DNA of 64,000 bases from Gammaproteobacteria bacterium Ga0077554 (GTDB lineage Bacteria; Pseudomonadota; Gammaproteobacteria; Ga0077554; Ga007554), in NCBI GenBank assembly GCA_001464585.1, contig LNFF01000040.1, positions 7,267 through 71,266 on the forward strand. The letters run 5' to 3'. Both the position numbers and the translations under genes were made by a program. Shown here piece after piece: positions 8,340 to 25,919 of the stretch (position 1 is the first letter of the stretch; each line of letters opens with the position of its first letter). Under the pieces are notes generated by a model. It did not search any database and was not told where the DNA came from. It saw only the letters and a list, made by a program, of their open reading frames with translations.

Positions 8340-8342
8340 GTT

Positions 8343-11506: not shown

Positions 11507-11571
11507 TATATTGGCTTAAGGGGTATTCTTGCCATGTTTGTTTTTCATTAAATAACTCTAGATACATTGAT

Positions 11572-12858
11572 ATGGATGATTTAACCACACTATTGCGCGA
11601 CTGGATGGATGCTCTGGGCACGCCTGCTGTGCAAGTGCAACTGGGTGTTATCACGTGCGCGGGTTTGTTTGGCGCATGGTTGTACCGTTATTGGACGCAA
11701 CGACTCGCCACGCTCTCGGCAACCTCTCCCGATCACTGGTTGCGTGATTTCTTTTTACGCGGGTTATCGCGGATTATTTTCCCCTTTGGCATGTTCCTGT
11801 TCATGGCGGTGGGCCGCGTTATCCTGCGCAAAGCGCGCATGGATGTCGAACTACTGGATAGCGTGATGCCCCTGGCGCTCTCCTGGGCGGCAATCCGTCT
11901 CGCGGTATTTATTTTACGCACCAGCTTTAATCCCACCCGCACACTTAAAGCATGGGAAGGCATTATCAGCACCACGCTGTGGGTGGCTGTCGCATTGCAT
12001 TTATTGGGATGGTTGCCGGATATTTTGAATGCGATGGATGAAATTGCATTCCACGCCGGCAAAGTCCACATTTCGCTACTTGCTGTCACCAAATTAGTGC
12101 TGGCGGTCGCCAGTCTGTTGATATTGGCGCTGTGGCTGTCTAATTTTATCGAGAAACGCCTGGCGGGCGCCAGTGATATGGACGCAGGTATGCGCATCGG
12201 CATTGCCAAGTTCAGCCGCTTCCTGCTGCTGACCTTTGCCCTGCTGCTCTCGCTGTATAGCGCCGGTATCGACTTAACGGCACTTGCCGTTTTCGGCGGA
12301 GCTTTAGGCGTGGGGCTAGGCTTTGGCTTGCAGCGCATCGCCAGTAATTTTATCAGCGGTTTTATTCTGGTGATGGACCGTTCGATTCGGCCGGGTGATG
12401 TTATTACCACCGGCAACACTTATGGCTGGGTACAGGAAATGCGCGCCCGCTACGTCGTCGTGCATACGCGTGATGGCTCTGACACCCTCATCCCCAATGA
12501 GAAATTAATCACCTCGGATGTGATTAACTGGAGCTATGCAAATCCCAACATGAGCATTTCATTGGCCCTGCGCATCAGCTATCAGGATGACCCGGAGCGC
12601 GCCATACAGATCATGCTCGATATTGCCCGCAAGCATGCTCGCGTGCTCAGTGATCCTGCGCCAAGCTGCATTTTGAAAGAATTTGGTGAGGCTGGGATTA
12701 CGCTAGAAATGACCGTGTGGATCAATGATCCCGAAGCCGGAATCACCAACGTACGCTCCGATCTGTATCTTGCGATCTGGAAAGCGTTCAAGCAACACGC
12801 CATTACGATTCCCCATACCCTCCCGCCTGCTCCACCAGCACCAGCGCCGGAAATATAA
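11572..12858 (+). CDS. mechanosensitive ion channel, MscS family
   Basis: Multiple N-terminal TM helices followed by the MscS beta-domain pattern ('GDVITTGNTYGWVQEMRARYVVVHTRDG...IPN'). The ATG at 11572 is preferred over the track start at 11500. Confidence 0.75.
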   Translation: MDDLTTLLRDWMDALGTPAVQVQLGVITCAGLFGAWLYRYWTQRLATLSATSPDHWLRDFFLRGLSRIIFPFGMFLFMAVGRVILRKARMDVELLDSVMPLALSWAAIRLAVFILRTSFNPTRTLKAWEGIISTTLWVAVALHLLGWLPDILNAMDEIAFHAGKVHISLLAVTKLVLAVASLLILALWLSNFIEKRLAGASDMDAGMRIGIAKFSRFLLLTFALLLSLYSAGIDLTALAVFGGALGVGLGFGLQRIASNFISGFILVMDRSIRPGDVITTGNTYGWVQEMRARYVVVHTRDGSDTLIPNEKLITSDVINWSYANPNMSISLALRISYQDDPERAIQIMLDIARKHARVLSDPAPSCILKEFGEAGITLEMTVWINDPEAGITNVRSDLYLAIWKAFKQHAITIPHTLPPAPPAPAPEI

Positions 12859-12897
12859 ACCCAAAAAATCCCACGCCGAGTCAGCGCAGAAACGAAG

Positions 12898-13012
12898 CCA
12901 GATTTCTCCCGGCAACTGCTCCTGCGTTGCTCTACCTTCCGCCATCCATGGCGGTCGCCTTCGGTCGAAATGACAGTGAGGCTGTCATCCCGAACGAAGA
13001 GAGGGATCTTGG
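12898..13012. repeat. MITE/REP-like nested palindromic element (family A, 'tgtcatttcgaccgaagg...cgaaatgaca', plus a 'gtcatcccgaacg' module)
   Basis: Near-identical to copies at 21885, 25775, 49845 and 57507. Confidence 0.8.
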
Positions 13013-13029
13013 TTTTTGAACGAACTTTC

Positions 13030-13266
13030 ACTGATGTCAGGAATGCGTTTCTCTACGGGAAAACCCTGATTCCTCCTCACATAATCCCTGATGTATGGGA
13101 TGAAATACCCAATAGCCGCGATGTAAATAATTTGTAACAATTTTGTCACATATGTCACGAAGCCGTAATGTTGAAGTGGTTTAAGCAGCGAAGCCCAGAT
13201 ATTTTGATGGCTATTTATTCATTAAACTCTGGTTAATGAACTTCAGCAGCGTGATGTGTGAAACAT
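13030..13266 (+). repeat. direct repeat copy 1 (237 bp, ~90% identical to 22150..22385): duplicated promoter region of the DASS transporter gene
   Basis: Hand alignment of 13030..13266 against 22150..22385 shows only scattered mismatches. Confidence 0.85.
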
Positions 13267-13362
13267 AGTGTATAGCCTGAAAAAAATAATGGGAACTGTT
13301 GACATTATCAATAATTGGGATTAAATTCCCATATAACAAGGATTGAACAGGGTCAACCACCT

Positions 13363-13458
13363 TACCGGCTTATAGCCGGGGCATAGCAGCGGGGGTGATC
13401 ACGCTCACCATCTGGTTGGGGTTGCCTGAACTCAATACGCAGGCACGCCTGGCTTTCA
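13363..13458 (+). repeat. direct repeat copy 1b (~96 bp, ~85% identical to 22489..22584): duplicated 5' coding fragment of the DASS transporter
   Basis: Encodes '...TIWLGLPELNTQARLAFIT', matching residues about 30-50 of the 22419..23990 protein. Confidence 0.8.
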
Positions 13459-13475
13459 TCACGGAGGATACTATC

Positions 13476-14819
13476 ATGAAGATCCTGCATTATTCTCATG
13501 ACAGCCTGGGGCTGGGACACATCCGGCGTACACTTGCCATCGTTCGCCAGCTCGCGCATGACCTGCCGGGCATCGGGCAACTGGTGCTTACCGGATCAAT
13601 GCAGTTTGGCGCCTACGAATGGCCGCCGCACGTGGATTGCGTGAAGCTGCCGACCCTTCGTAAAAAAACCAACGGCGAATATCACTCACCCTATTTACAT
13701 GGGTCGCTGGAAGCCGTTTCCACCCTGCGCGAGAGCATCATTCTGAGCACGATTAACTATTTCAATCCAGACCTTGTGCTTGTGGACAAGGCCCCGGCGG
13801 GCCTGAACGGCGAAATGATGCGCGCCCTGCATCGTCTCAAACAGGAACGCCCCCAGACGTTGCTGGTTCTGGGCATGCGCGACATTGAGGATGACTCCCA
13901 GACCACGCGCCGGGATTGGACACGCGGTAACATATATCCATTGCTGGAGAACATTTACGACGCCATTCTGCTCTACGGCGCGCGCGAGCTTTTCGATCCC
14001 GTGACCGAATACCATCTCTCGCCGACAATCGCCGACAAGATGCACCCGTGCGGCTATGTCTTCGGTGCCGGTGAGCGTGTGGTGGCGACGGAGTGCCTTC
14101 GCGAGAAACTCGGGCTACAGACGGAGCGCCTGGTGTTGGTGACAGCCGGTGGCGGCGCCGATGGATTTCAGGTCATCAAGACTTACCTTGAGATGCTGGC
14201 GAGCCGGCCGACACCCGCCCCTTTTCATTCCCTGATCGTTGCCGGCCCGCAGATGGCGGCTGCGGAATACAAGGTGCTGGAACAATGTGCCGCAGCGGTT
14301 GCCTCTCCGCTCACACTGAAACTCTTCACCCCCCATTTGTCGAACTACCTGCGCATCGCCGATCTGGTAATCACCATGGGCGGCTACAACACCGTGATGG
14401 AGATTTTGGGACACGGTCGATGCTCGATTATCGTGCCGCGCGTAAGCCCCCGCCGCGAGCAACTGATCCGTGCTGAACGCCTGGCGGCACGGAATCTGGT
14501 TCGCATGATCCACCCTGACGAGTTGACACCCGCACGCCTCCTGGCCGAAATGGACGCCGCCCTGGAACACAGTGATCGCGTCGATCCTGCCGGGATGGGC
14601 CTGCGCATGGACGGTGCGGAGAAGGCGAGTCGCATTCTCGCCGCGCTACTGGACACCCATGCCCACACGATGACCCACACGACAAAGGTCACACCACCTG
14701 TCCGCGCTGAGGCAATGTGCTCCAGCCAAAATTCTTCCGCAGCACCCGCCGGGGAGCGGCGCAAAAACCATAGCCAACGGCGCAAGGACCGAACTGTTCG
14801 GGACACATCCAATGGGTAA
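13476..14819 (+). CDS. GT-B glycosyltransferase (COG4671/MGT-like, GT1/GT28 superfamily)
   Basis: GGAGGA RBS 7 nt before the ATG at 13476. N-terminal 'MKILHYSHDSLGLGHIRRTLAI' matches the 'HxxxGxGH' start of GT1/28 enzymes. The track ORF extends upstream to 13395 only by reading through the duplicated transporter fragment. Confidence 0.6.
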   Translation: MKILHYSHDSLGLGHIRRTLAIVRQLAHDLPGIGQLVLTGSMQFGAYEWPPHVDCVKLPTLRKKTNGEYHSPYLHGSLEAVSTLRESIILSTINYFNPDLVLVDKAPAGLNGEMMRALHRLKQERPQTLLVLGMRDIEDDSQTTRRDWTRGNIYPLLENIYDAILLYGARELFDPVTEYHLSPTIADKMHPCGYVFGAGERVVATECLREKLGLQTERLVLVTAGGGADGFQVIKTYLEMLASRPTPAPFHSLIVAGPQMAAAEYKVLEQCAAAVASPLTLKLFTPHLSNYLRIADLVITMGGYNTVMEILGHGRCSIIVPRVSPRREQLIRAERLAARNLVRMIHPDELTPARLLAEMDAALEHSDRVDPAGMGLRMDGAEKASRILAALLDTHAHTMTHTTKVTPPVRAEAMCSSQNSSAAPAGERRKNHSQRRKDRTVRDTSNG

Positions 14820-16020
14820 GCCATTCCACGTCGGTTATGTCCTCAAGCGCTATCCGCGTCTCTCGGAAACCTTCATTGTCACCGAGATGCTTGAATTGCG
14901 GCGCCTCGGCGTGACGGTTACGATCCTGGCACAGAGAGATGCAGGCGAAACGCTGGTGCATGAAAAGACGCGCCAACTCGATGCGCCGATCTATTACCTG
15001 CCGCGCGTTTCCAGCCAGGAATGGCCGTTTCGCTATCACAAGGACGGGGTCAGCCCTGCGACTACCCTCGAGAGTGGCGGCGCCAATAGCGACGAGAGCA
15101 GCGGGCGCACCATGCTCGAGGCCGCCCTACTCGCGCCGCTGGTCGAGCGGCTTGGTATCGATCATCTGCACGCACACTTCGCCACCTGGGCGAGCGAGAT
15201 GGCCTGCCACGTCAGTGCGCTTACCGGCATCCCTTTCAGCTTTACCGCGCACGCCAAGGACATCTTTCACAACGATGTTAACAAACAGCAGTTGGCATGG
15301 AGGATGGCGCGGGCGAAACTCGTTATTACCGTGAGCGATTTCAACAAGGCCTACCTCAATGATCTGCTCGCCGTCTCCGGCAAAACCGGCCGGATCGAGC
15401 GCCTGTATAACGGCATCGATCTCGATTTGTTCGCACGGCAGGCACGCCACCCGGAGCCGGGGTTAATTGTCGGCATCGGACGTCTCGTGGAAAAAAAGGG
15501 TTTCGACTATCTCATTGATGCCTGCCGTCTGTTGAAGCAGGAAGGTCGGCAGTTCCGCTGCGTCATCGCCGGCGACGGCGAACAACGCGCCGCGCTCGCG
15601 GCGCGTATCAGCGAACACGGACTGGATAACGAGATCACGCTTGCCGGCGCCATGAGCCAGACCGAAGTGATCGCCTTGCTCAAACGCGCAACGGTGTTCG
15701 TTCTGCCATGCGTCGTGGGACGGGACGGCAACCGCGACGGCCTGCCGACTGTACTGCTTGAGGCGATGACCCTCGAAGTGCCTGTGGTTTCCACCCGCGT
15801 TACTGGCATCCCGGAAATCGTTGATCATGGGCAAACCGGCCTGCTGGTAGAGGAAAGGGACGCTACGGGACTGGCTGCGGCGCTTGCCGAATTACTCCAG
15901 GCACCAACGCTACGGCGACAACTCGGCGCCCGGGCACGGGAGAAAGTTGCGCGCCAGTTCAACACGGCCGAAAACGTAAAACAGCTCAGAGAGCATTTTA
16001 TCGTGAGCAGTGGAAGTTAG
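14812..16020 (+). CDS. GT4-family (group 1) glycosyltransferase
   Basis: 402 aa with GT-B fold cues and the C-terminal E-x7-E region ('EAMTLEVPVVSTRVTGIPE'). Overlaps the upstream GT stop by 8 nt. Confidence 0.7.
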   Translation: MGKPFHVGYVLKRYPRLSETFIVTEMLELRRLGVTVTILAQRDAGETLVHEKTRQLDAPIYYLPRVSSQEWPFRYHKDGVSPATTLESGGANSDESSGRTMLEAALLAPLVERLGIDHLHAHFATWASEMACHVSALTGIPFSFTAHAKDIFHNDVNKQQLAWRMARAKLVITVSDFNKAYLNDLLAVSGKTGRIERLYNGIDLDLFARQARHPEPGLIVGIGRLVEKKGFDYLIDACRLLKQEGRQFRCVIAGDGEQRAALAARISEHGLDNEITLAGAMSQTEVIALLKRATVFVLPCVVGRDGNRDGLPTVLLEAMTLEVPVVSTRVTGIPEIVDHGQTGLLVEERDATGLAAALAELLQAPTLRRQLGARAREKVARQFNTAENVKQLREHFIVSSGS

Positions 16021-16170
16021 AACCTGTTTAGAATCTCGATCAAGGGATGCAGCGCAAGGCAAAAGTAACCGAAAAAGCGGAGCATACACGAAGTATGTGA
16101 GCATTTTGAGGTTACTTTTAACGCCGCGATGCGCCCTTCAGCGAGATTCTAAATAGGTTCTATAGGAATT
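16021..16170. repeat. ~150-bp imperfect long palindrome / hairpin element in the GT4-GT4 intergenic region
   Basis: 'tagaacctgtttagaatctcg' (16021..) pairs with 'cgagattctaaataggttcta' (..16165). Inner arms 'aaaagtaacc' / 'ggttactttt' also pair. Confidence 0.6.
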
Positions 16171-16393
16171 TTGGGCTCACCCTATGCGCATGCTCGCGTT
16201 TCCGGAATATTTTATTCCGCCCTTTTCCGCAGGGGAGCAGACACTAACCACGGTCGACCGGGTATGTTTGTTATGGTATGGTATTGTCTGGTCAATGAGC
16301 TTCATTATCTGGCTCACCTGCTGCAACGCGACCTTGCCCTGCTGCCTGTTTTCGATCAGGTCAATCTTTGACAACCGCGAGTAGCCGTGCGCC

Positions 16394-17683
16394 ATGAACA
16401 GTAATAATCAGCATTCACGTCAAGATATGAAGATCCTGTATCTGTGCAGCGATCTGGGTATTCCTGTGCTCGGACGTAAGGGCGCTGCGGTGCATGTGCG
16501 CGTCCTGAGTGAGGCGTTACAGCGCGCCGGGCATACGGTGGTGCTCGCGGCGCCATCGTTGAACAAAGACCCGTGGGAAATTCCGCAGCAGATAAATGCT
16601 GCGCTGATGCATCTGCCGCCGTCACCCGAAGTGGCGCAGGCCGTACTCGGGTTAACGGAATTCAACGAATCGCTCGAGGTTGAAAACTCGCTGCCTGGCG
16701 AGTTGCGGCGCATTCTTTACAACCAGCAACTGGCGGCACAGCTCGAACGCCGCTTCCGCAACCACGCGCCGGATTTCATCCTTGAACGCGCGTCGCTGTA
16801 CGCCACGGCAGGTGTGCGCGTCGCACGTGCGCTTAATATTCCCTTGATTGTCGAACTCAACACGCCGCTGGCGCTCGAGCAATCCGCCTATCGCACCACG
16901 GGCCTGGGCGAGCTGGCCGCCCAGGCCGAGTGTTGGGCGCTGACACACGCCGATGCGGTATTCGCTGTTTCGGATCCGTTGCGCGATTATGTGCTGTCCC
17001 TCGGGGTCGCGTCCGAACGCGTACACGTGCTGCCGAACGGCGTTGATACGGCGCTGTTTTATCCCGCCCCCCGCAACCCCGAACTGCGCGCGCGGCTCAA
17101 TCTTGGCGATGGACCGGTGCTCGGCTTCGTCGGCGGGCTGCGGCCGTGGCACGGCGTTCAGGCCTTGCCGCTGCTGGTGGAGCGATTGGCGCCACGCTAT
17201 CCACACTTGCGCCTGGTTATCGTGGGCGAAGGGCCGATGCGGGCCGAATTGGATGCCGCCTTCCGGGCGCGCCGCATCCAGGAGCATGTGATCTTCACCG
17301 GTTCACTCCCGCACGACGAGGTGAGTGAACTGATTCGCCAATTTGATGTGGCGCTCGCGCCTTATCCCGTACTTGATCATGTGTTCTATTTCTCGCCCCT
17401 CAAACTGTTTGAGTACATGGCCTGCGGCGTGCCAGTGGTCGCGGCGGCCGTGGGCCAGATTGCCGAGGTGGTGCGCGATGGCGATACTGGCCTGCTCCAC
17501 CCGCCCGGCGATCTTGATGCGCTCGCCGCCGCATGCGCGCGACTCCTCGCCGACCCTGCGCTCCGCCAGCGCCTGGGAGAAACGGCGGCGGCAGAGGTTC
17601 ACTCCAACTACACCTGGACGCGGAATGCCACGCGCATCGTCGAACTGGCGCGCACGTTGATCGCACACCGCGCGGGCGGATGA
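16394..17683 (+). CDS. GT4-family glycosyltransferase (alternative start 16427)
   Basis: 'MKILYLCSDLGIPVLGRKGAAVHVRVLSEAL' is a typical GT4 N-terminus. C-terminal 'EYMACGVPVVAAAVGQIAEVV' supplies the EX7E region. Confidence 0.7.
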   Translation: MNSNNQHSRQDMKILYLCSDLGIPVLGRKGAAVHVRVLSEALQRAGHTVVLAAPSLNKDPWEIPQQINAALMHLPPSPEVAQAVLGLTEFNESLEVENSLPGELRRILYNQQLAAQLERRFRNHAPDFILERASLYATAGVRVARALNIPLIVELNTPLALEQSAYRTTGLGELAAQAECWALTHADAVFAVSDPLRDYVLSLGVASERVHVLPNGVDTALFYPAPRNPELRARLNLGDGPVLGFVGGLRPWHGVQALPLLVERLAPRYPHLRLVIVGEGPMRAELDAAFRARRIQEHVIFTGSLPHDEVSELIRQFDVALAPYPVLDHVFYFSPLKLFEYMACGVPVVAAAVGQIAEVVRDGDTGLLHPPGDLDALAAACARLLADPALRQRLGETAAAEVHSNYTWTRNATRIVELARTLIAHRAGG

Positions 17684-18729
17684 TAACGATGCAGCATCCT
17701 TCCATTACGGTTGTCGATCCATTCGGCATTGCGGCAGATGTGAAGCTGCCGCAGGCGCGCCTCGCGCTCGATCCGACCGAGGTCGAGCCGCAACTTGAGC
17801 GGCTTTCGCGCTTAGCAGGAAAAGGCGGGCGCGTGCGGTTGCTGGCCATCCGCGTGATCCGCTACAAGCCGGGGCGGCGTTGCATGCTCGAATACGACGT
17901 GGCGGTGCCGACGGCCACTGGCGCACGGGAACTTACGCTCATCGGCAAGATGCGCGCGCGGCACCATGCCCGAGTCCCCTGCCGCCTGCTCGATACTCTG
18001 TGGAACACGGGTTTTGACGCGAACAGCAACGACGGCATTTCGGTACCCGAGCCTGCGGGGGTGATCAGCCGGTTCAATCTGTGGTTGCAGCATAAAGTTC
18101 CAGGGCGTCCACTGGGGGATCTGCTTTCAGGTTCCGAGGGTACAGCGCTGGCGCGGCGTGTTGTCGACGCCGTTCACAAGCTGCATATTGCGGGCGTTCC
18201 GACCGAACGGCGTCATACGCTGGCGGATGAGTTGCGAATCCTGCACGAACGTCTGCCCCGGGTGGCGCAGGAGCACCCCGGCTGGAGCCAACGCCTCGAG
18301 CACCTGCTGGCGGCCTGCGACCGACTCGGCGCCGACTTGCCACCGCCTGTAGAGCACGGTATCCATCGCGATTTTTACGCCGACCAGGTTATCGTTGACG
18401 GCGAGCGGCTGTATCTCCTCGATTTTGATCTCTATTGCGCCGGTGATCCAGCACTCGATATCGGTAACTTCGCTGGCCATATCATTGAGCAGCGCCTACG
18501 CCTGTCGGGAGACTCCTTAGCCCTCGCGGAATGCGAACAAGCCCTGGTCGAGCGCTTTGTGGAACTGGCTGGCCCGGCGTCGCGGCACGCGGTGGCTGTA
18601 TATACCACCCTGACGCTGGTGCGGCATATTTACTTAAGCACATTGTTTCCTGAAAGGCGCGTGTTGACCGGCAAGCTGCTTGAACTGTGCGAGCAGCGAC
18701 TGAGCCCGTGGCTCTGCGGAAGACCCTGA
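17680..18729 (+). CDS. kinase of the APH / LPS-kinase (WaaP/Kdo kinase) protein-kinase-like fold
   Basis: 'HGIHRDFYADQVIVDGERLYLLDFDL' contains the catalytic-loop HRD...N-like and DFD motifs of APH/WaaP-type phosphotransferases. Its ATG overlaps the stop of the upstream GT4 (ATGA). Confidence 0.55.
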   Translation: MITMQHPSITVVDPFGIAADVKLPQARLALDPTEVEPQLERLSRLAGKGGRVRLLAIRVIRYKPGRRCMLEYDVAVPTATGARELTLIGKMRARHHARVPCRLLDTLWNTGFDANSNDGISVPEPAGVISRFNLWLQHKVPGRPLGDLLSGSEGTALARRVVDAVHKLHIAGVPTERRHTLADELRILHERLPRVAQEHPGWSQRLEHLLAACDRLGADLPPPVEHGIHRDFYADQVIVDGERLYLLDFDLYCAGDPALDIGNFAGHIIEQRLRLSGDSLALAECEQALVERFVELAGPASRHAVAVYTTLTLVRHIYLSTLFPERRVLTGKLLELCEQRLSPWLCGRP

Positions 18730-18731
18730 AC

Positions 18732-20528
18732 ATGAAAAAACGGGACCGGTTGACTCGCATAGTACTTTCGCACCTTGGACGCATGAAAGGCGGTCTGGCG
18801 CTCGCGGCGGTGTGCACGCTGGGTGTCGTGGCTCTTGATCTGCTCGCTCCCTGGCCCCTAAAAATACTGTTCGATCACATCCTGCTCGAGAAACCCCTGG
18901 GTTCCGCACTCTCGTTTCTTGATGGCGTGCTGGCGCGCGGGCCGCTCGTCGCGCTCGCCACGCTCGCGGCAATGATCGTGCTGATCGCGCTCGGCAAGGC
19001 CGCGTTCCTGTATTTCCAGGTCTTTCAGACTTCGCGCATAGGCTATCAGTTGGTGTTCGAGTTGCGCCGGGAACTGTTTCAGCACTTGCAGGGCCTATCG
19101 CTGTCGTATCACAACCGCGCCCGCGCCGGGGACCTGCTTAACCGCATCACCAGCGACACCCACAACCTGCGGGACACTTTCACCGAATCCGCACTCGCCT
19201 TCGGCACCCACCTGCTCACCATCGTGGGCATGCTCGTGGTGATGTTCGCGCTCAATTGGCGGCTGGCGCTGATCGCGGCCGTGACGTTTCCCCTGCTGCT
19301 CGTGGTGCTGATATTGTTCTATGCGCGCGTCAAGGCCACGATGAAAAAACAGCGGCGACGGGAAGGCAAGATCGCCGCGCGCCTCGGCGAGGTGTTCGCC
19401 ACTGTGCCACTGGTGCGCGCCTTCGGGCGCGAGCGCTATGAAATCGCGCAGTTCGAGACGCAAAGCACCAAGCATCTGGAGGAAGGCATTCGCGCGCTGC
19501 GGCTCGAAGCGGCGGCGATACGCGCTACCGAAATCATCAGCGCCTTTGGCCTCGGCGCGACCGTGTTCTATGGCGCATTGCAGGTGCTCGCGGAGCGCAT
19601 GACACCCGGCGATCTGCTGGTGTTCTCGGCCTATGTCTCGCGCATGTATAGCCCGATACGTCAAGTCGCCAAGCTGTTGCTCAAATTTAACAAGGCGGCG
19701 GTCAGTGCGGAACGCCTGCGCGAGATCCTCAACGAAGAGCCCGAGATACCCGACCGGCCGGATGCAATCGAGGCGCACGACCTCAAGGGCGAGATCCGCT
19801 TCGATGGCATCTCGTTCGGTTATGGTGAAGGGGACAAGACATTAAATGACATCAGTTTCAGCATCGCCCCAGGGCAACGGCTGGTGCTGGTCGGCGCCTC
19901 CGGCGCTGGCAAATCAACCCTCGTCAATCTACTGCTGCGCCTGTATGAGCCCACCAGCGGTGCTATTTTCGTGGACGGCCACGACATCCGCGACTATCGG
20001 CGCGAATCCCTCCGGCGCGAGATCGGAATCGTGTTGCAGGACAACGTGCTGTTCGGCGCCAGCGTCCGCGAGAACATCGCTTACGGCAAGCTCCACGCCA
20101 CGCCGGAAGAAGTCGAGGCGGCGGCGCGCGCCGCCCATGCGCACGAGTTTATCGCGGCCCTGCCTGAAGGTTACGACACCCTCGTGGGGGAACGCGGCGC
20201 GACTCTTTCCGGTGGGCAGCGCCAGCGCATCGGGCTGGCGCGCGCCCTGATCAAGCGCCCGTCAATCCTGATCCTCGACGAGCCCACCTCGGCTCTCGAT
20301 GCCAGTTCCGAGGCGCTGATCCAGGAGGTGATTGAGCGTCTGCAGCAAGGCAAGACCACAATCCTGATCGCGCACCACTTTCGCTATATCAAGCATACCG
20401 ATCATGTTCTCGTGCTCAAGCAGGGCATTATCGCGGAACAAGGGAAGGCGCGGGAACTGATGGCGATGAAGGGTCATTATTACGATCTGTATGTGCATCA
20501 GGAATCTGATGCGCGCACCCGGCGATGA
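18732..20528 (+). CDS. fused permease-ATPase ABC exporter (type I, MsbA-like)
   Basis: 6 N-terminal TM helices, Walker A 'GASGAGKST', signature 'LSGGQRQR', Walker B 'LILDEPTSALD'. The start 18732 is chosen 2 nt after the kinase stop. Confidence 0.8.
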   Translation: MKKRDRLTRIVLSHLGRMKGGLALAAVCTLGVVALDLLAPWPLKILFDHILLEKPLGSALSFLDGVLARGPLVALATLAAMIVLIALGKAAFLYFQVFQTSRIGYQLVFELRRELFQHLQGLSLSYHNRARAGDLLNRITSDTHNLRDTFTESALAFGTHLLTIVGMLVVMFALNWRLALIAAVTFPLLLVVLILFYARVKATMKKQRRREGKIAARLGEVFATVPLVRAFGRERYEIAQFETQSTKHLEEGIRALRLEAAAIRATEIISAFGLGATVFYGALQVLAERMTPGDLLVFSAYVSRMYSPIRQVAKLLLKFNKAAVSAERLREILNEEPEIPDRPDAIEAHDLKGEIRFDGISFGYGEGDKTLNDISFSIAPGQRLVLVGASGAGKSTLVNLLLRLYEPTSGAIFVDGHDIRDYRRESLRREIGIVLQDNVLFGASVRENIAYGKLHATPEEVEAAARAAHAHEFIAALPEGYDTLVGERGATLSGGQRQRIGLARALIKRPSILILDEPTSALDASSEALIQEVIERLQQGKTTILIAHHFRYIKHTDHVLVLKQGIIAEQGKARELMAMKGHYYDLYVHQESDARTRR

Positions 20529-21865
20529 GCCGTCATACAGCCATCAGCTTCATGCTTTCCGGAATCCTCGCCTTGGCGCCGCTGGGGGCTCGGGCCGAAG
20601 CGCCCCCAGGGCCGACGATCCCGGAAGGCGCGCCTGAAACCCAGGTCACGGACGTCGATACCGCTGTCCTGCCGCCGCTGCCTTTTCATCCCGCACCATG
20701 GTTATCCATGGGCGCGATGGTCAAACTCACTCTGGCAAGCGGCGAGAACGTCAGTATCGCGGGTTCAGCGCCGCCCCGCCAGCGGTCATCCGAAGCGGTG
20801 TTAACCACGGCGGCCAGCGTTTCCCTGGCGCCGAACCTAGGGATCTTTACTGCGGCCGAGCTGGTACGTGACAAGAGAACGGGGCGGTCGCTGGACACAA
20901 ATGCTGAGATCACGGTCGCCTACCTGCTTTGGAACCGGATGTTCTCATCTCCGTTCACCCTGCAGTTGGGACGCCAGCGTTTCGCCGACGAGCGTCAGTG
21001 GTTGTTCGACGAAAATCTCGACGGCGTGCGCGTGCAGGGGAAGTTCGGCCGTCTGGTGGGTGAAATTTCCGGCAGCACCTATCTGAACCCAAAAAGCGAC
21101 AGCCAAGAGATGGAGAATTACCTGTTGCGCGCCGATTTTCACTTTACCCCCCAGGATCGTCTCGGCGTGTACGCGTTTCATCGCAAAGACCCGCTCAGCG
21201 AAAACAATGATCGTACCTATCTGGGAGTGAACGGCGCGGCGCGGGTATCCGGGCACAAACTCTGGCTCGATGCGGCCTTACTCTCTGGCGATAATGGCGC
21301 GCGTCAGCGCCAAAGCTTCGGCGCTGACGCAGGCATAACATTGCGCTTCGGTGCTGATCGGCAATGGGCTGTTACCCTGGCCCATGCCGTGGGCTCGGGG
21401 GATGGCAACCGGGACGATAACCTCGACAAAACTTTTCGCCAGACGAACCTGCACGACAATGAGGCGCGGTTCAACGGTGTAACGAGATTCAAATATTACG
21501 GTGTCGTCACCGATCCCGAACTAAGCAATCTCCGCATCGCCACGGCCGGCATCGGGCTGAACCCAAATCGGCAGTATTCCATCGATCTGGTGTATCACGC
21601 CTACGAACAGATCGTCGAGAACGACCGGTTCCGTTCGGAAGTAATCCAGGATCCCAATGGAGAACAGCGACGACTGGGCGCAGAGATCGATCTTATCTTC
21701 GGTGCGCGCGTGGGCAAATATTTCCGTATCCATGGGACGGTCGGGGTGTTCCAGCCCGGAGCCGCGTTTGACGACACCCGTCGGGTGGTCTTTGGCGAGA
21801 TCGAACTGCGATTGGCAGCGTCCCCACCAAAGCCCGCAAAAGCGGTTAAACCGGTCACAAAATAA
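20525..21865 (+). CDS. signal-peptide-bearing protein, probable outer-membrane beta-barrel (alginate-export/AlgE-like porin candidate)
   Basis: Cleavable signal 'ALAPLGARA/EAP'. Alternating amphipathic beta-strand pattern rich in G, D, N and aromatic residues. ATGA start/stop overlap with the ABC exporter. Confidence 0.45.
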   Translation: MSRHTAISFMLSGILALAPLGARAEAPPGPTIPEGAPETQVTDVDTAVLPPLPFHPAPWLSMGAMVKLTLASGENVSIAGSAPPRQRSSEAVLTTAASVSLAPNLGIFTAAELVRDKRTGRSLDTNAEITVAYLLWNRMFSSPFTLQLGRQRFADERQWLFDENLDGVRVQGKFGRLVGEISGSTYLNPKSDSQEMENYLLRADFHFTPQDRLGVYAFHRKDPLSENNDRTYLGVNGAARVSGHKLWLDAALLSGDNGARQRQSFGADAGITLRFGADRQWAVTLAHAVGSGDGNRDDNLDKTFRQTNLHDNEARFNGVTRFKYYGVVTDPELSNLRIATAGIGLNPNRQYSIDLVYHAYEQIVENDRFRSEVIQDPNGEQRRLGAEIDLIFGARVGKYFRIHGTVGVFQPGAAFDDTRRVVFGEIELRLAASPPKPAKAVKPVTK

Positions 21866-21884
21866 GGCGCAACCCCATCAATGT

Positions 21885-22039
21885 TGTCATTTCGACCGAA
21901 GGCGACCGCCATGGATGGCGGAAGGTAGAGCAACGCGCCGGGCAGGATGCCCAAGTGCGGTGGGCGCAGGGATGCGCAAGAACCGCCCGGAGCAGTTGCC
22001 GGGAGAAATCTTAAGATTCCTCGCTGCGCTCGGAATGAC
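21885..22039. repeat. MITE/REP-like element, family A with a 'cgaggaatcttaag...cggaatgaca' module
   Basis: Matches 12898, 25775 and 49845. Confidence 0.8.
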
Positions 22040-22149
22040 ATGGTTTATGTAACCTGTCCCAAGTTTATTAAGCGAACAGTATTGAGGCGCAACCCGGTGC
22101 GCCATTACTCGCCGAAGTGACATCCGCTCTGCCGTTTCTAATGGAAAAC

Positions 22150-22385
22150 ATGACATCAGCAATGAGTTTTCTACAGGAAAACCCTGATCTCCCTCCCCAC
22201 AATCCCTGACATATGGGATGAAATACCCAATAGGCGCGGCGTAAATAATTTGTAACAATTGTGTCACATATGTCACGAAGCCGTAATATTGAAGTGGTTT
22301 AAGCAGCAAAACCCAGATGTTTTGATGGACATTCATTCATTAAACTCTGGTCAATGAACTTCAGCAGCGTGATGTGTGAAACATA
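22150..22385 (+). repeat. direct repeat copy 2 (promoter region of the DASS transporter); a second block 22489..22584 matches 13363..13458
   Basis: See copy 1. Confidence 0.85.
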
Positions 22386-22418
22386 AGTGTCATAAAGCGC
22401 CATGGAGAGGTAATCAAC

Positions 22419-23990
22419 ATGATCATGCCTCAAGGAGTGAGCACCTTGCCAGCCACGGGGCACCCCGGCTGGCCCTTTAAGCAACATTACCGGCTCATAG
22501 CCGTGAGTGTAGCAGCGGTGGTGGTCACGCTCGCCATCTGGTTCGGGTTGCCGGAACTCAATACGCAGGCACGCCTGGCTTTCATTACTTTCAGCCTGGC
22601 GCTTATTGGATGGTGTTTCACCACGATCAATGACACCTACATCGCATTGGTGGCGGCGATAATTCCCAGCGTAATAGGTACTGGCGCGCCCAACGAATTT
22701 TTCGAGGCATTGGGTGACTCCATGATCTGGTTGCTGTTCGCGGCATTCATCATCGCCGCAGCGGTAAGTGCGTCCGGCCTCTCGCGCCGTTTGACGATGG
22801 CGGTGGTCAGTCGGGCGCACTCTGTAAATCAATTGTTTTATGCGTTGACCGCCGCGATTATCGCCACAGCTTTTGTCATTCCTTCCACATCCGGCCGCGC
22901 GGCGCTGATGTTGCCGATTTTCATTGCGCTGAGCACCACCATCAATGATGCGCGCATCACCAAAGCGTTGGCGCTGCTTTTCCCCACAGTGATCTTGTTG
23001 TCGGCGGTTGCGTCACTGATTGGTGCGGGCGCGCATCTGGTGACCGCCGATCTGCTGCTGCACATGACGGGACAGCGTATTGGCTTTTGGGAATGGATGG
23101 TATGGGGGCTACCGTTTGCGCTGGTGAGTTGTTTTGTTTCGACGTGGTTAATCCTGCGCCTGTTCCTGAACAAGGAAGAACAGCATAAGCCCGTGCAATT
23201 CAGCGTGGCGCAAATTGAAAAGGGCGACGATAGTTCTGATCCCAAGGCGTTTTCCAGGCAAGAGCGCTACATGTTAATACTGGTGGTGGCCCTGGTCACC
23301 TTGTGGGCCACGGAACCATTACACGGCGTCAACAATACCATGGTCGCCATCGTCGGAGCCTTGCTGGCGACGGCGCCAAAATTTGGCGTGTTTTCGTTCA
23401 TGGAGGCCGTCAAGAAAGTTGAGTGGAGCTTGCTGATTTTCCTGGCGGCGACCATGGAGATAGGCGAGTCCTTGATTGAGTCAGGTGGCGCCAAGTGGTT
23501 GGCGGATCACTTGTTCGAGATGTTGCAGGGTGGAGCCGCAACCTCTGCATGGCTTGTGGTTTCTGTTGTCGCGGCGGTTTCGTTGCTCTCGCATTTGCTC
23601 ATTAATTCGCGCACTGCGCGTTCCTCAGTGCTGGTTCCGCTGGTGATTTTGCTGGGCCTGTCGCTGGGGTTTCAACCGGCGGGGCTGGCGTTCCTCTCCA
23701 CTGCGGCAGCCGGTTTTTGTCTGACGTTGATGGTCAGCGCCAAACCCGTCGCCATGTTTGGCCAGATCGAGGCGTCCACCTATACCGCGCAGGATCTGTT
23801 GCGTTTGAGCGCTGTGCTGTTGCCGATACATTTTGTATTGCTCGTGGTATTCGCCTTTTTTGTCTGGCCTTATCTGGGGTTGGAGTTTCTGCCTGACCCG
23901 ACTGCAGTTCATCAGACACCGACGTGGACGGAATGGCAACCTTCACCCGCACAGACGTCGACGGTCGCTGTTGCTATGCAGGGTAAATAA
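22419..23990 (+). CDS. DASS/SLC13-type (ArsB/NhaD superfamily) anion or carboxylate transporter
   Basis: 523 aa with about 12-14 TM helices and an internal duplication pattern. GGAGAGG RBS. Confidence 0.65.
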   Translation: MIMPQGVSTLPATGHPGWPFKQHYRLIAVSVAAVVVTLAIWFGLPELNTQARLAFITFSLALIGWCFTTINDTYIALVAAIIPSVIGTGAPNEFFEALGDSMIWLLFAAFIIAAAVSASGLSRRLTMAVVSRAHSVNQLFYALTAAIIATAFVIPSTSGRAALMLPIFIALSTTINDARITKALALLFPTVILLSAVASLIGAGAHLVTADLLLHMTGQRIGFWEWMVWGLPFALVSCFVSTWLILRLFLNKEEQHKPVQFSVAQIEKGDDSSDPKAFSRQERYMLILVVALVTLWATEPLHGVNNTMVAIVGALLATAPKFGVFSFMEAVKKVEWSLLIFLAATMEIGESLIESGGAKWLADHLFEMLQGGAATSAWLVVSVVAAVSLLSHLLINSRTARSSVLVPLVILLGLSLGFQPAGLAFLSTAAAGFCLTLMVSAKPVAMFGQIEASTYTAQDLLRLSAVLLPIHFVLLVVFAFFVWPYLGLEFLPDPTAVHQTPTWTEWQPSPAQTSTVAVAMQGK

Positions 23991-24072
23991 AACCCGTAGC
24001 AAGCAAGCTGCGGGGTATTTCTCTGTCATTCCGAGCACCGCGAGGAATCTTAAGCAAGATCCCTCACTGCGC
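23991..24072. repeat. MITE-like element, family B ('gtcattccgagc..cgaggaatcttaag..agatccctcactgcg')
   Basis: Shares modules with 30243, 37690, 42058, 59956 and 63229. A related fragment 'gcgtagcgaggaacccaaacccaaagagattga' lies at 24095..24140 and again at 48205..48245. Confidence 0.75.
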
Positions 24073-24166
24073 CTGAAATGATAAGGGCGATGACAATAAA
24101 CCAAGCTACGGGGAAAGCGTAGCGAGGAACCCAAACCCAAAGAGATTGATCAAGGAGAATGTATTT

Positions 24167-25390
24167 ATGAAATTAAATGTATTGATAGCACCATCTGGAT
24201 TTAAAGAGAGCCTGGGCGCCGATGAGGTGACGGACTGCATCGCCGCTGGCGTGCTGCGGGTGTTGCCCGAAGCCAGGATCATGAAAGCCCCGCTGGTGGA
24301 TGGCGGCGAGGGTTTTACCAAGGCGTTGGTCGCGGCTACGGGCGGGACATTGCACGATATCGTAGTCACGGGGCCGGTCGGCGAGCCTGTGCAATCGCAC
24401 TTTGGTTTTCTCGGCGGGAAGGGGCCTAAAACCGCCGTGCTGGAAATGGCCGCCGCCGCTGGGTTACGCCTGGTGCCGCGCGAGTGCCGCGATCCTTTGA
24501 TCACCACCACCTTTGGTGTGGGCGAGTTGATCAAGGCCGCGCTTGATGCCGGCGCGGAACGCGTGCTGATCGGCTGCGGGGACTCCGGCACCAACGACGG
24601 CGGCGCAGGCATGGCGCAGGCGCTAGGCATACGCCTGCTGGACAATGCCGGCAAGGAGATTGGCCGGGGCGGCGGGGCGCTGGACAGACTGGCGCGGATT
24701 GATCTCTCGGGTCGTGATCCGCGTATTGCTCACGTACACATCGACGTAGCGTGTAACTGGCACAACGTGTTGTGTGGTCCGAATGGAGTGGCGCGCGTAT
24801 TCGGCCCGCAAAAAGGCGCCTCGCCGCAGACCGTCGAACGGCTCGCTGCGGCGCTTGACCGTTATGCCGGGGTGCTCAAGGACGCGACAGGGATTGATGT
24901 GCGCGGTATGCCGGGTGGCGGCGCTTCCGGAGGTCTGGGGGCGGGATTATGTGCTTTGCTCGGCGCGCGGTTGCACTCACGTTATGAGATTGTGATGCAA
25001 TACCTGGAACTGGATAGCCTGCTGGCCCAGGCCGATGTGGTATTCACCGCAGAGGGAGCGATTGATTTTCAAACCCCGCGTGGAAAAATTCCCGCCGAGG
25101 TCGCGCGTCGCGCCAAGAAATACGGATTGCCGGTAATTACCCTGGCGGGGACTATCGGCAAAAATGCCTGTGTCAATCTGGAGTGCGGTATTGATGCCTA
25201 TACGAGCATAGTGGAGGGTCCCTGCACCCTTGCCGAGGCCATTGAAAATGCCCCACGTCTCCTTGAGGAAACGGCGGAATATGTCATGCGCATGGTTCTG
25301 ATAGGTGCGCGCCTGGAGTCCGCACCGCGATTGCCACAGGCATTTTTGCCGCGCGGTGCTGTGGTGGTGGGCCAGCGGGCAATGGTGTAA
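24167..25390 (+). CDS. glycerate kinase (GlxK/GarK family)
   Basis: 'MKLNVLIAPSGFKESL...DGGEG...GCGDSGTNDGGAGMAQALG' are the canonical glycerate 2-kinase motifs. GGAGAA RBS. The ATG at 24167 is preferred. Confidence 0.85.
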   Translation: MKLNVLIAPSGFKESLGADEVTDCIAAGVLRVLPEARIMKAPLVDGGEGFTKALVAATGGTLHDIVVTGPVGEPVQSHFGFLGGKGPKTAVLEMAAAAGLRLVPRECRDPLITTTFGVGELIKAALDAGAERVLIGCGDSGTNDGGAGMAQALGIRLLDNAGKEIGRGGGALDRLARIDLSGRDPRIAHVHIDVACNWHNVLCGPNGVARVFGPQKGASPQTVERLAAALDRYAGVLKDATGIDVRGMPGGGASGGLGAGLCALLGARLHSRYEIVMQYLELDSLLAQADVVFTAEGAIDFQTPRGKIPAEVARRAKKYGLPVITLAGTIGKNACVNLECGIDAYTSIVEGPCTLAEAIENAPRLLEETAEYVMRMVLIGARLESAPRLPQAFLPRGAVVVGQRAMV

Positions 25391-25477
25391 AATCGGTAAT
25401 GCCTGTACTCGCCCCCGCATTTCCGCGAGATCATGGGCAGAGGCCGAGAGATTGGCGTGAAACGGAGGAATAAACGC

Positions 25478-25711
25478 ATGAATGCAGCCGTCGTCGACAA
25501 CAAAGAATCCCAGAGACATCTGAGCTTTATCCACATGATTGCGGAAGCCAGTGGCGTGCCGGATGAAGAAGTGGAACAGATTTATAATGCGGAATTGGAA
25601 AAGCTGAAGAAGGGAGCGCGGCTGAGCACCTTTCTTCCGGTGCTTGCGGGCAGCAGGACAAAGGAAATCCTGCGGCATATGCAGCACGGCTCGCTTCGTA
25701 ACTTGCTATGA
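25478..25711 (+). CDS. hypothetical small protein (77 aa)
   Basis: GGAGGA RBS 7 nt before the ATG at 25478. No family recognised. Confidence 0.35.
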   Translation: MNAAVVDNKESQRHLSFIHMIAEASGVPDEEVEQIYNAELEKLKKGARLSTFLPVLAGSRTKEILRHMQHGSLRNLL

Positions 25712-25774
25712 AAGCTTGCGCTCCTGCATGAAAAATGCGGGGGAGAGGCCGTGTTACGGGATCTTTACGATGTG

Positions 25775-25885
25775 TGTCATTTCGACCGAAGGCGACCGCC
25801 ATGGATGGCGGAAGGTAGAGCAACGCAGGAGCAGTTGCCGGGAGAAATCTTTTGCGTAGGATTTCTCCCTTCGGTCGAAATGACA
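25775..25885. repeat. MITE/REP-like element, family A (complete hairpin form)
   Basis: 'tgtcatttcgaccgaaggcgaccgccatggatggcggaaggtagagcaacgcaggagcagttgccgggagaaatc...gatttctcccttcggtcgaaatgaca'. Confidence 0.85.
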
Positions 25886-25919
25886 ATACCTGCGGAATAG
25901 ACAATACCGCGAAATGAAA

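Follow-up and report, generated by a model that had tools for sequence, protein, structure and literature searches.

Organization of the locus

Within the 64-kb stretch of DNA that was analysed as a whole, referred to as the window in the following, a block of six genes lies between a gene for an mscS-family mechanosensitive channel and a gene for a DASS-family anion transporter. The channel gene, on the left (11572-12858; Pfam MS_channel_2nd, 3e-18, and MS_channel_3rd), has its longest open reading frame from 11500, while the JGI call, made in L008, yields 428 aa from 11572. The transporter gene, on the right (22419-23990; Pfam Na_sulph_symp, 3.7e-36), is intact; its 523-aa protein shares 81-97% of its amino acids with those of the relatives L001-L003 and L014, and it is followed by a glycerate kinase gene (24146-25390), as in all relatives. 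The two neighbors, the six genes between them and the repeat copies described below are all on the plus strand. The original prediction of a GC-rich island at this place is borne out by composition: the GC content of 13463-22149 is 0.603, compared to 0.535 in the remaining window, no other 8.7-kb stretch of the window exceeds 0.582, and the six genes differ from the 44 other open reading frames in GC (Mann-Whitney p = 5e-4) and likewise in GC3.

The block is a conserved cassette, predicted to encode a GT-B glycosyltransferase, two GT4 glycosyltransferases, a small-molecule-type kinase, an MsbA-like ABC exporter and an AlgE-like barrel. Gene 1 (13476-14819) is a GT-B glycosyltransferase with a Glyco_tran_28_C domain (Pfam 4e-11). 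Its sequence has no match among PDB sequences; its AlphaFold model (pLDDT 87) shows a generic GT-B fold, with GT1-type glycosyltransferases and MshA as best PDB matches (TM 0.55-0.60). Since its homologs all begin with MKILHYSHDS, the ATG at 13476 is its real start. Gene 2 (14812-16020) is a GT4 glycosyltransferase (Pfam Glycos_transf_1, 5e-41), whose NCBIfam matches all fall under the family cutoffs, and so is gene 3 by its Pfam matches (16394-17683; Glycos_transf_1, 8e-32; Glyco_transf_4, 1e-22). Gene 4 (17680-18729; Pfam APH, 9e-11) is a small-molecule-type kinase of the APH family, with its eukaryotic-like fold. The residues H229, D231, Q236 and D248-F249-D250 are invariant (consensus HRDFYADQ and IDFD), and the best fold matches of its model (pLDDT 93) are the choline/ethanolamine kinase family, methylthioribose kinase and APH; among the roughly 100 clusters listed, the homologs are 57-62% identical and none carries a functional name. 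Gene 5 (18732-20528), with the start chosen by the JGI call and homolog lengths, is an MsbA/NdvA-like half-size ABC exporter with fused membrane and ATPase domains (Pfam ABC_membrane, 4e-46; ABC_tran, 8.5e-39), and gene 6 (20525-21865) is an AlgE-like outer-membrane beta-barrel (Pfam Alginate_exp, 2.2e-26; PDB AlgE, 3e-10).

The six genes had been described as tightly packed. This is true of the ATGA overlaps at 17680 and 20525, but not of genes 2 and 3, which are separated by a 374-nt gap (16021-16393) with a 145-nt MITE-like element. This element (16018-16162) has 29-nt terminal inverted repeats, is inserted at the 3' end of gene 2 and provides its stop codon. Homology of the cassette to its relatives ends before it, at 15998, and its core matches positions 2-51 of L009, at an unrelated site.

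Comparison with known glycan export systems

Several known pathways resemble parts of the cassette. In alginate secretion (Alg8/Alg44 synthase, AlgK, AlgE), the outer-membrane component belongs to the same barrel family as the last gene of the cassette. Unlike that system, however, the cassette has no GT2 synthase, PilZ co-polymerase or TPR lipoprotein, and features an ABC exporter for inner-membrane transport. A synthase-dependent secretion of the alginate type was therefore rejected: the barrel alone is present, and the glycosyltransferases are soluble-type GT-B enzymes (the GT28_C-domain enzyme and two GT4). Gene 5 has the same architecture as the half-size exporters MsbA, NdvA (ChvA), HepA and PglK (about 600 aa; E 1e-107 to 1e-130), but differs from these exporters in that it falls under every family cutoff, including the NCBIfam models MsbA_rel, HepA and glucan exporter, and in its pairing with an AlgE-like barrel and a kinase. 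No NdvB-type glucan synthase or lipid A genes are found near it. Export of cyclic beta-1,2-glucan (NdvA/ChvA with NdvB/ChvB) was rejected on bit scores far below the cutoffs (NF010178, 360 bits vs 733; TIGR01192, 280 vs 585) and on the lack of a large synthase gene. Likewise, the ABC-transporter-dependent capsule or glycan pathway, with its two-component ABC-2-type transporter (Wzm/Wzt, KpsMT), co-polymerase and Wza/KpsD-type outer-membrane protein, was rejected, given the fused MsbA-like half-transporter and the absence of PCP and OPX domains from the cassette.

We infer the function of the cassette from its sequence. Its product probably is a glycan or glycoconjugate of small size, probably phosphorylated, that is assembled in the cytoplasm; the ABC exporter would carry it over the inner membrane, and its release through the outer membrane would fall to the AlgE-like barrel. 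The cassette encodes no periplasmic partner joining exporter and barrel.

Two diverged copies of the transporter 5' region

The cassette is flanked by direct repeats. Copy 1 (13030-13462) and copy 2 (22150-22588) are two versions, about 90% identical, of the DASS upstream region together with codons 24-57 of the transporter gene. The two repeat blocks, predicted at roughly 85-90% identity, are confirmed, with ungapped matches of 89% over 219 nt (13049-13267 vs 22167-22385) and 92% over 79 nt (13384-13462 vs 22510-22588). With one gap allowed per block, the matches reach about 13030/22150 and 13362/22488. The longest exact runs shared by the copies comprise 33, 32 and 26 nt, of which the first two are far above chance.

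Copy 2 was rightly taken for the genuine 5' end of the transporter gene. It consists of R1' (22150-22385, with a dyad at 22214-22229), X2 (22386-22487, with the ribosome site and the ATG at 22419) and R2' (22488-22588), thus comprising the ribosome site, the start and codons 1-57 of an intact gene, and it represents the functional DASS upstream region, orthologous to those of L001-L003, L014, L017 and L018. In copy 1, the corresponding parts have had different fates. R1 (13030-13267), the duplicate of the upstream regulatory region, retains every conserved motif block, including the dyad TGGGATGAAATACCCA at 13096-13111; the same blocks are also conserved in L001-L003, L014, L017 and L018. R1 shows just 2 private changes in copy 1, compared to 7 in copy 2. 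By contrast, R2 (13362-13462) is a decayed remnant of codons 24-57, with 8 private changes within 101 nt in copy 1 vs 1 in copy 2, and with a 1-nt deletion near 13379, seen in the alignments, that shifts the frame. With its ATG region replaced, this frameshift and these 8 private changes, copy 1 is a non-coding remnant. The original prediction that it ends as an in-frame transporter fragment joined to the gene at 13476 holds for the frame: the open reading frame list has one that runs from a GTG at 13395 in frame into the ATG of gene 1. The left junction is abrupt: DASS homology stops at 13462, a GGAGGA ribosome site (13463-13468) and a spacer follow up to 13475, and homology to the cassettes of L009, L010, L011 and L020 starts at 13475-13477. 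A microhomology to L009 at this joint, ATC(C)AC (ATCAC / ATCCAC before GGAG), is possible but weak.

A replacement patch with a predicted promoter

Between R1 and R2, copy 1 contains an element that had been missed, the AT-rich patch X1 (13268-13361). It occupies the place where DASS would have its ribosome site, start and codons 1 to about 23; about 75 nt of unrelated sequence replace the ribosome site, the ATG and the first ~20 codons (non-homologous core 13278-13352, GC 0.31). No residual homology was found between X1 and 22401-22478, with an alignment score of -17 compared to a shuffle mean of -17.9, nor any match to X1 elsewhere in the window or in the searched loci L001-L013. The interval of roughly 95 nt that separates the repeat blocks of copy 1 is non-homologous to copy 2, scoring at the level of shuffled sequence.

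A promoter scan predicts a sigma-70-like promoter within X1 (13299-13327; TTGACA-17-TAAATT, 10/12 matches), the sole near-consensus sigma-70 match in either copy. Its -10 hexamer is overlapped by a dyad, TGGGATTAAATTCCCA, at 13316-13331. This 16-nt dyad occurs three times in the 64 kb, compared to 0.56 expected occurrences even with two mismatches permitted, and outside X1 it is confined to the DASS upstream region. No terminator-like site was found on the plus strand between 13299 and 13476, and the structure of the leader is not unusual (z = -0.37). The proposal that the island is driven by a captured transporter promoter is probably too simple, as the promoter-proximal part, from the end of the 5'UTR through the ribosome site and ATG to about codon 20, has been replaced by the unrelated AT-rich patch. 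Instead, transcription of the cassette probably starts at the near-consensus promoter in X1, 149 nt upstream of its ATG. As the dyad recurs over the -10 hexamer and the whole of the retained R1 sits just upstream, the cassette may be co-regulated with DASS.

Empty sites in relatives and the cassette elsewhere

The proposed search for an empty site in relatives was successful in three related metagenome contigs, L014, L017 and L018, in which a copy-1-type left flank or mscS leads through one upstream region directly into the intact, copy-2-type start of DASS. The order in L014 is mscS (89.9% nucleotide identity), MITE, single upstream region, DASS (94.8%) and glyK; in L017, the 3' end of mscS is followed by 78 nt, the single region and DASS (94.2%); and L018, which begins within the MITE, continues from a MITE-1-type flank into the single region and DASS. 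The block is therefore an insertion/deletion polymorphism. At this site, the island is otherwise found only in L006-L008 and L021, contigs of this same strain at 99.9-100% identity. L001-L003, which are more distantly related, have retained the DASS-glyK synteny and the upstream motifs, without a cassette at that place. In other bacteria, the cassette occurs in at least six different contexts (L009, L010, L011/L012, L016, L019 and L020), and in every close relative its homology starts at the start codon.

These data bear on the direction of the polymorphism. One could imagine that the two-copy arrangement with the cassette is ancestral and that the sites became empty by deletion, through homologous recombination of the two repeats. 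The exact runs of 33, 32 and 26 nt suffice for RecA-dependent recombination, and an exchange inside R1 would leave just mscS, one region and a complete DASS gene. Relatives losing the island in this way would show identical empty sites. We nevertheless regard an ancestral arrangement as very unlikely. Three lineages about 10% apart are without the cassette, of which L017 is also without MITE-1; along R1, L014 has 10 sites in common with copy 1 alone and 11 with copy 2 alone, and these are interspersed, with no single switch; the distant relatives L001-L003 lack the cassette beside DASS; and the cassette itself is deviant in GC and found in other contexts in its closest homologs.

Mobile elements at the island

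Each repeat copy had been described as immediately preceded by a MITE of one family. The two elements do belong to one family, but the right one lies about 110 nt from copy 2, and the pair is inverted, with 52 nt being 100% complementary, which had been overlooked. MITE-1 (12898-13012) has a 52-nt core (12924-12975) that recurs at 21885, 25775 and 49845. L014 and L018 have it at the corresponding position, and L017 lacks it; as it occurs in empty sites, it is neither a boundary of the island nor part of the inserted unit. MITE-2 (21885-22040), inverted relative to MITE-1, is contained in a 210-nt block (21876-22085) that is bracketed by a 10-nt direct repeat, GGCGCAACCC, at 21866-21875 and 22086-22095. 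This repeat of its own suggests a separate insertion, and the MITE-2 block probably is a later one. For the spacer at 22041-22149, neither the rest of the window nor L001-L013 contains a match, and it does not align significantly with the intergenic region of L017 or the left flank of copy 1.

Two inverted MITEs with an identical 52-nt core, flanking copy 1 and the cassette, might suggest that they mobilized the segment as a composite transposon-like unit. A MITE- or IS-bounded composite transposon was rejected on the presence of MITE-1 in the empty sites; moreover, there is no transposase in or beside the block, and with the direct repeat of MITE-2, such a unit appears exceedingly improbable. 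Mobility genes are absent from the island altogether: no integrase or recombinase is found in the six genes and both neighbors (Pfam, NCBIfam) or within 10 kb on each side (JGI calls), and ARAGORN finds no tRNA gene in the 64-kb window. Like classical genomic islands, this one is present in some relatives and absent from others, deviates in GC, is flanked by direct repeats and has cargo for a glycan that is secreted or at the surface, but its repeats are 435-bp gene-derived segments about 10% apart rather than short identical att sites. An integrase-type genomic island was thus rejected on the integrase and tRNA/att evidence, even though polymorphism and deviant composition were found.

Age and origin of the arrangement

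That the island was acquired at the 5' region of the transporter gene, as originally proposed, agrees with the empty sites, the raised GC and GC3 and the other contexts of the same cassette elsewhere. That it was acquired recently is not supported by the duplication clock. In R1, copies 1 and 2 differ at 22 of 214 sites, equal to the distances between orthologous regions, and the distances are star-like, every pair drawn from copy 1, copy 2, L014 and L017 differing at 20-23 of 213-214 sites. As the copies are as far apart as the orthologous regions of separate lineages, either the event is old or two alleles were joined. The informative sites in R1 conflict (copy 1 with L018, 4; copy 1 with copy 2, 3; copy 2 with L017, 3) and thus support no tree.

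The left end of the insert abuts codon 57 of one DASS 5' region, copy 1, and its right end is followed by a full DASS upstream region and gene, copy 2, so that the direct repeats of roughly 435 bp would be two alleles of one transporter 5' region. The most economical route would be recombination by homology on the DASS side with an illegitimate joint at codon 57, that is, homology-facilitated illegitimate recombination, in which the donor would be a relative at roughly 10% divergence whose DASS gene was already preceded by the cassette. Such a donor would explain why the copies are as divergent as orthologs; no genome was found with the proposed donor arrangement, in which the cassette lies directly upstream of DASS without copy 1. 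Homology-facilitated illegitimate recombination, with one homologous end and one illegitimate joint, has been described in bacteria capable of natural transformation and in E. coli conjugation (PMC3240628). As would be expected of such a product, the foreign DNA brings no recombinase gene and passes on one side into sequence homologous to the host, here that of DASS. The joint on the other side is abrupt, with microhomology of a few bases at most, next to what would be a remnant of the displaced resident gene. The 435-bp duplication and the later replacement of a patch in copy 1 are not standard for such products, and we infer the event from sequence.

Alternatively, a single event could have put the cassette into the empty mscS-DASS site and duplicated about 435 bp of target, for instance by staggered breaks or replication template switching, followed by ~10% divergence in place and a later replacement of the start region of copy 1. 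In favor of this, the insert sits precisely where the two copies meet, and a 12-nt tract, GGTTTAAGCAGC, is private to them when compared with the three empty-site alleles; its three clustered sites, common only to copies 1 and 2, favor a duplication in situ or a later gene conversion between the copies. A first three-way count also placed the copies marginally closer to each other (10.6%) than to L014 (12.8-13.2%). With more relatives, however, their distance (22/214) is not below that to the orthologs (20-23/213), although the split of the empty-site lineages must predate the insertion, and the private changes in R1 are fewer in copy 1 than in the functional copy 2, contrary to what a long-relaxed duplicate would show. 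A duplicative insertion soon after the lineage split fits almost as well as the joining of two alleles, yet on balance we consider duplication in situ a possible but rather unlikely course of events.

Altogether, we consider it moderately likely that a promoter-less cassette of operon size (13463 to about 21865-22149) entered the site between mscS and DASS in this lineage, with the two-allele origin, the expression and the product proposed above. The gene set is unstudied, and its gain is of an ordinary type that is well documented here.

The island and its empty sites

The six-gene cassette at 13463–22149 lies between mscS on its left and the gene of a DASS anion transporter (22419–23990) on its right, which is in turn followed by a glycerate kinase gene. 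The original prediction regarded this block as an island acquired at the 5' region of the transporter gene. This view is supported by related contigs, as the empty-site comparison suggested along with it, which is the decisive test, was positive in three of them, L014, L017 and L018. In L014 (9.4 kb), the mscS side corresponds to window positions 10529–12922 at 89.9% nucleotide identity and is followed by a MITE, by the equivalent of 22153–23986 at 94.8%, and by the glycerate kinase gene. In L017, 78 MITE-free nucleotides separate the 3' end of mscS from a single upstream region and a DASS gene of 94.2% identity, while L018 starts in an element of the MITE-1 type (MITE-1, 12898–13012) and continues with a flank as found at the left repeat copy, a single upstream region and a DASS gene of 91.5% identity. 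All three thus join a left flank of the copy 1 type to a start region of the copy 2 type, which is the layout predicted for an unoccupied site. Three more distant relatives (L001–L003) retain the synteny of the DASS and glycerate kinase genes as well as the upstream motifs, have flgN-ycgR(-hipA) upstream, and carry no cassette there.

The window is identical to the JGI contig AADWTP_10000019 (sample 3300002461; NCBI WGS LNFM01), whose name we take to denote a drinking-water treatment plant filter; contigs from an activated-carbon metagenome are nearly identical to it, and contig L021 represents the same strain. The nearest species-level genomes are gammaproteobacterial MAGs, with 81–86% amino acid identity in DASS.

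The island is also as GC-rich as had been claimed, at 0.603 (13463–22149) versus 0.535 in the rest of the window, where no other 8.7-kb stretch exceeds 0.582. Its six genes rank higher than the 44 other ORFs in both GC and GC3 (Mann–Whitney p = 5e-4). The window is heterogeneous, with single genes outside the island reaching 0.62, and the signal is that of a contiguous block, not of an extreme value. The cassettes of other hosts usually lie 2–9 GC points above their flanks, L011 being an exception.

Two copies of the DASS 5' region

The two direct-repeat blocks that had been described at the ends of the island are real. The upstream block, R1, spans 219 nt at 89% identity without gaps (13049–13267 vs 22167–22385), and the coding block, R2, spans 79 nt at 92% (13384–13462 vs 22510–22588). 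Gapped alignment pushes their starts out to about 13030/22150 and 13362/22488, and the longest exact runs between the copies are 33 and 32 nt. Copy 2 (22150–22588) is indeed the genuine one: it consists of the DASS upstream region and codons 1–57 of the intact gene (523 aa).

Between the blocks, the stretches at 13268–13361 in copy 1 (X1) and 22386–22487 in copy 2 (X2) are non-homologous, and copy 1 (13030–13462) consequently lacks the DASS ribosome site, the ATG and the first ~20 codons. The core of X1 (13278–13352) has a GC content of 0.31, its counterpart (22401–22478) one of 0.59. We rejected the idea that X1 is a mutated DASS start region, since its alignment to 22401–22478 scores like shuffled sequence. 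Copy 1 further has a 1-nt deletion near 13379. The proposed fusion of its transporter fragment to the first island gene holds insofar as the last codons run in frame into the ATG at 13476, but it is not a coding fusion: all homologues start at MKILHYSHDS, which makes this ATG, preceded by GGAGGA at 13463–13468, the true start of gene 1. An N-terminal extension of this protein from the GTG at 13395 is likewise ruled out by the homologous N-termini.

In R2, eight changes are private to copy 1 and one to copy 2, so that copy 1 is a pseudogene fragment here. The private changes in R1 number only two for copy 1 and seven for copy 2, and all conserved motif blocks are intact in copy 1. Changes at conserved R1 columns number 4/107 in copy 1 vs 5/107 in copy 2, a comparison that is biased by L014-specific changes and carries little weight. 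A metagenome scan for the conserved upstream motifs, written as a degenerate pattern of 45 nt, gave no match, the 12.5-kb region had none in the E. coli genome, and Rfam returned a single chance-level match for 12500–24200 at E <= 1.

Boundaries of the insert

Nucleotide homology to the cassettes of close relatives begins at the start codon (13475–13477), and DASS homology stops at 13462, so that the left joint falls in an interval of 13 nt. At the right end, two direct copies of the 10-nt sequence GGCGCAACCC, at 21866–21875 and 22086–22095, enclose a 210-nt block that contains MITE-2 (21885–22040). This block looks like a later insertion with target duplication into a GGCGCA-ACCCGG-TGCGCC hairpin shortly downstream of the last cassette gene, which encodes an outer-membrane barrel; if so, the original insert ended at most ~65 nt past the stop codon of that gene. 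The insert was thus a bare operon, essentially devoid of flanking DNA. No recombinase was found in it, and no tRNA in the window. The spacer at 22041–22149 matches the mscS–DASS intergenic region of L017 and the left flank of copy 1 no better than shuffled sequences do.

The MITE family itself exists, its cores lying at 12924, 21885, 25775 and 49845, and the two elements next to the island are inverted relative to each other. One had been described immediately before each repeat copy. MITE-1 is present in the empty sites of L014 and L018 and is absent in L017; therefore, the MITEs neither bound nor explain the island. In L003, whose DASS gene is only ~81% identical to that of the window, 52 nt at 8749–8800, at the 5' end of the glycerate kinase region, match the interior of MITE-2 (21936–21987) at 100%. 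This indicates a family that is shared across species and either very conserved or recently active. Separately, L001–L003 have three extra genes between the glycerate kinase gene and a conserved 361-aa gene (L001 12800–16170); at that place, the window has only ~530 nt (25390–25920), filled with MITE copies (25770–25886).

Age and origin of the two copies

Across 213–214 aligned sites of R1, copies 1 and 2 differ at 22. Copy 1 differs from L014 at 21 and from L017 at 20, copy 2 at 23 and 21, respectively, and L014 from L017 at 22, with L018 at 31–42 from the others. The distance between the two copies matches that between orthologous regions from separate lineages. The informative sites in R1 conflict, four grouping copy 1 with L018, three grouping copy 1 with copy 2 (in one clustered tract), and three grouping copy 2 with L017.

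These equal distances can be explained without special timing if the repeats are a resident and a donor allele, and for this reason we slightly favour an origin by homology-facilitated illegitimate recombination, for which PMC3240628 gives a definition. The donor DNA would have come from a relative diverged by ~10% in which the cassette already lay upstream of DASS; one of its joints would have formed by homology within DASS, and the other, an illegitimate one, at codon 57 of the resident gene. Such a donor arrangement was not found among the loci compared. A duplicative insertion in situ, soon after the lineages separated, also fits and agrees with the tract common to copies 1 and 2, but it needs special timing for the distances to come out equal. 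Less likely, the cassette is ancestral and the empty sites are deletions: the block would have to be lost in three diverged lineages, there is no single point at which the L014 allele turns from copy 1-like to copy 2-like, and the distant relatives have no cassette at DASS.

Along the DASS–glycerate kinase stretch, sliding identity to L014, L017 and L018 shows no clear switch that would mark a recombination breakpoint. At the 3' end of mscS (12529–12928), L014 and L017 share 92.5% identity with each other but only 77.5% with the window; the remainder of mscS is 87–99% identical to L014. The left flank thus appears to be a mosaic itself, pointing to repeated recombination in this region.

Putative expression signals

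The two copies contain just one near-consensus sigma-70 match, TTGACA-17-TAAATT at 13299–13327, which lies inside X1, 149 nt upstream of the ATG. No plus-strand terminator-like site was found downstream of it, and RNA structure in the leader (13328–13480) does not rise above shuffled sequences. The 64 kb contain exactly three copies of a 16-nt dyad, TGGGATNAAATNCCCA (13096–13111, 13316–13331 and 22214–22229), against an expectation of only 0.56 matches even with two mismatches allowed. Each R1 contains one, within a block conserved in all relatives, and the third lies in X1, over the -10 hexamer. In L001 and L003, the equivalent block is a perfect TGGAT-N5-ATCCA palindrome, and the dyad is probably a regulator binding site. 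No such dyad precedes the cassette in L009, L011, L016, L019 or L020. A native association of X1 with the cassette was rejected, as nothing similar precedes the homologues in L009–L013.

The proposal that the island simply captured the DASS promoter needs correction: the arrangement suggests that the cassette is driven by a putative promoter in X1, under the same factor as DASS.

Cassette genes and their predicted function

Genes 1 to 3 encode a GT-B glycosyltransferase with a Glyco_tran_28_C domain (13476–14819) and two GT4 glycosyltransferases (14812–16020 and 16394–17683). They are followed by an APH-family kinase (17680–18729), an MsbA/NdvA-like half-size ABC exporter (18732–20528), which stays under the cutoff of every NCBIfam family, and an AlgE-like barrel (20525–21865; Pfam Alginate_exp 2.2e-26, PDB AlgE 3e-10). 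The tight packing ascribed to these genes is uneven: the analysis bears out the ATGA overlaps at 17680 and 20525, but a 374-nt gap follows gene 2. In this gap lies a MITE-like element of 145 nt (16018–16162) whose terminal inverted repeats measure 29 nt; it sits at the extreme 3' end of gene 2 and provides that gene's TAG stop. The core of the element recurs at an unrelated site in L009 (2–51), and cassette homology to relatives ends at 15998.

The model of the first glycosyltransferase (pLDDT 87) has only generic GT-B neighbours in the PDB (TM 0.55–0.60). The kinase retains its catalytic set (H229, D231, Q236 and D248-F249-D250, all invariant; consensus HRDFYADQ and IDFD), with 57–62% identity among the ~100 clusters listed; the closest folds to its model (pLDDT 93) are choline/ethanolamine-kinase-like proteins, methylthioribose kinase and APH. 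PDB sequence searches with these two proteins gave no matches. From this set of three GT-B enzymes of the soluble type, a kinase, an ABC protein of the flippase/exporter type and an AlgE-like barrel, we infer that a small, probably phosphorylated glycan or glycoconjugate is assembled in the cytoplasm and then exported across both membranes. Unlike the alginate pathway, the cassette has no GT2 synthase and no TPR partner, and it does not show the defining features of ABC-2/OPX capsule pathways or of the NdvA/NdvB cyclic-glucan system.

Literature searches found no paper describing the cassette. Besides these gammaproteobacteria, its carriers include contigs named Ca. Nitrotoga, and Nitrospira has a modified form of it. 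The closest homologues are those of L009 (83–84% nucleotide identity), next to a 352-aa protein gene, an ABC gene and minCDE; L020 (81–87%), downstream of a Peptidase_S8 gene; and L010 (78–79%). On the amino acid level, identity is 68% in L011/L012, where the cassette lies between gyrB and DUF2914-valS, 53% in L019, which has an extra APH gene, and 47% in L016 (Nitrospira), which has fused GT4s, a heparinase II/III, two APH genes and a phosphatase. In L010, a 640-aa TPR + Porin_O_P protein (7138–9060) replaces the AlgE-like barrel, an architecture reminiscent of the TPR-barrel exporters in synthase-dependent polysaccharide systems. In L009, the genes for the 352-aa protein and the ABC exporter adjoin the cassette divergently (2283–5935) and share 64–72% nucleotide identity with genes at window positions 25920–27005 and 30477–33194, which are found downstream of the island at a distance of 4–11 kb; a functional link to the cassette is possible.

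It is conceivable, if on balance unlikely, that the cassette represents an undescribed and widespread envelope-glycan route, built on three GT-B enzymes and a highly conserved kinase of the small-molecule type, that pairs an MsbA-like ABC exporter with an AlgE-family barrel, with no OPX, PCP or TPR partner, and that it was rewired here via X1 and the dyad to the regulator of the DASS and glycerate kinase genes.

Significance

As a gene gain, the event is of an ordinary kind, documented here with unusual completeness, and neither the island nor the cassette overturns current understanding. It provides a clean natural case of an operon-sized block without mobility genes entering a chromosome, with a filled site, three empty sites and at least six other contexts. 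It also shows how an inserted block can gain local expression signals, here from the retained upstream region of its neighbour and a new promoter-like patch. The cargo is widespread but uncharacterised. Drinking-water and wastewater biofilms are dominated by organisms that carry the cassette (contigs named Nitrospira and Ca. Nitrotoga). With no characterised member, a conserved kinase and hosts dominant in water biofilms, the cassette makes a reasonable target for studies of the biofilm matrix or of envelope glycans.
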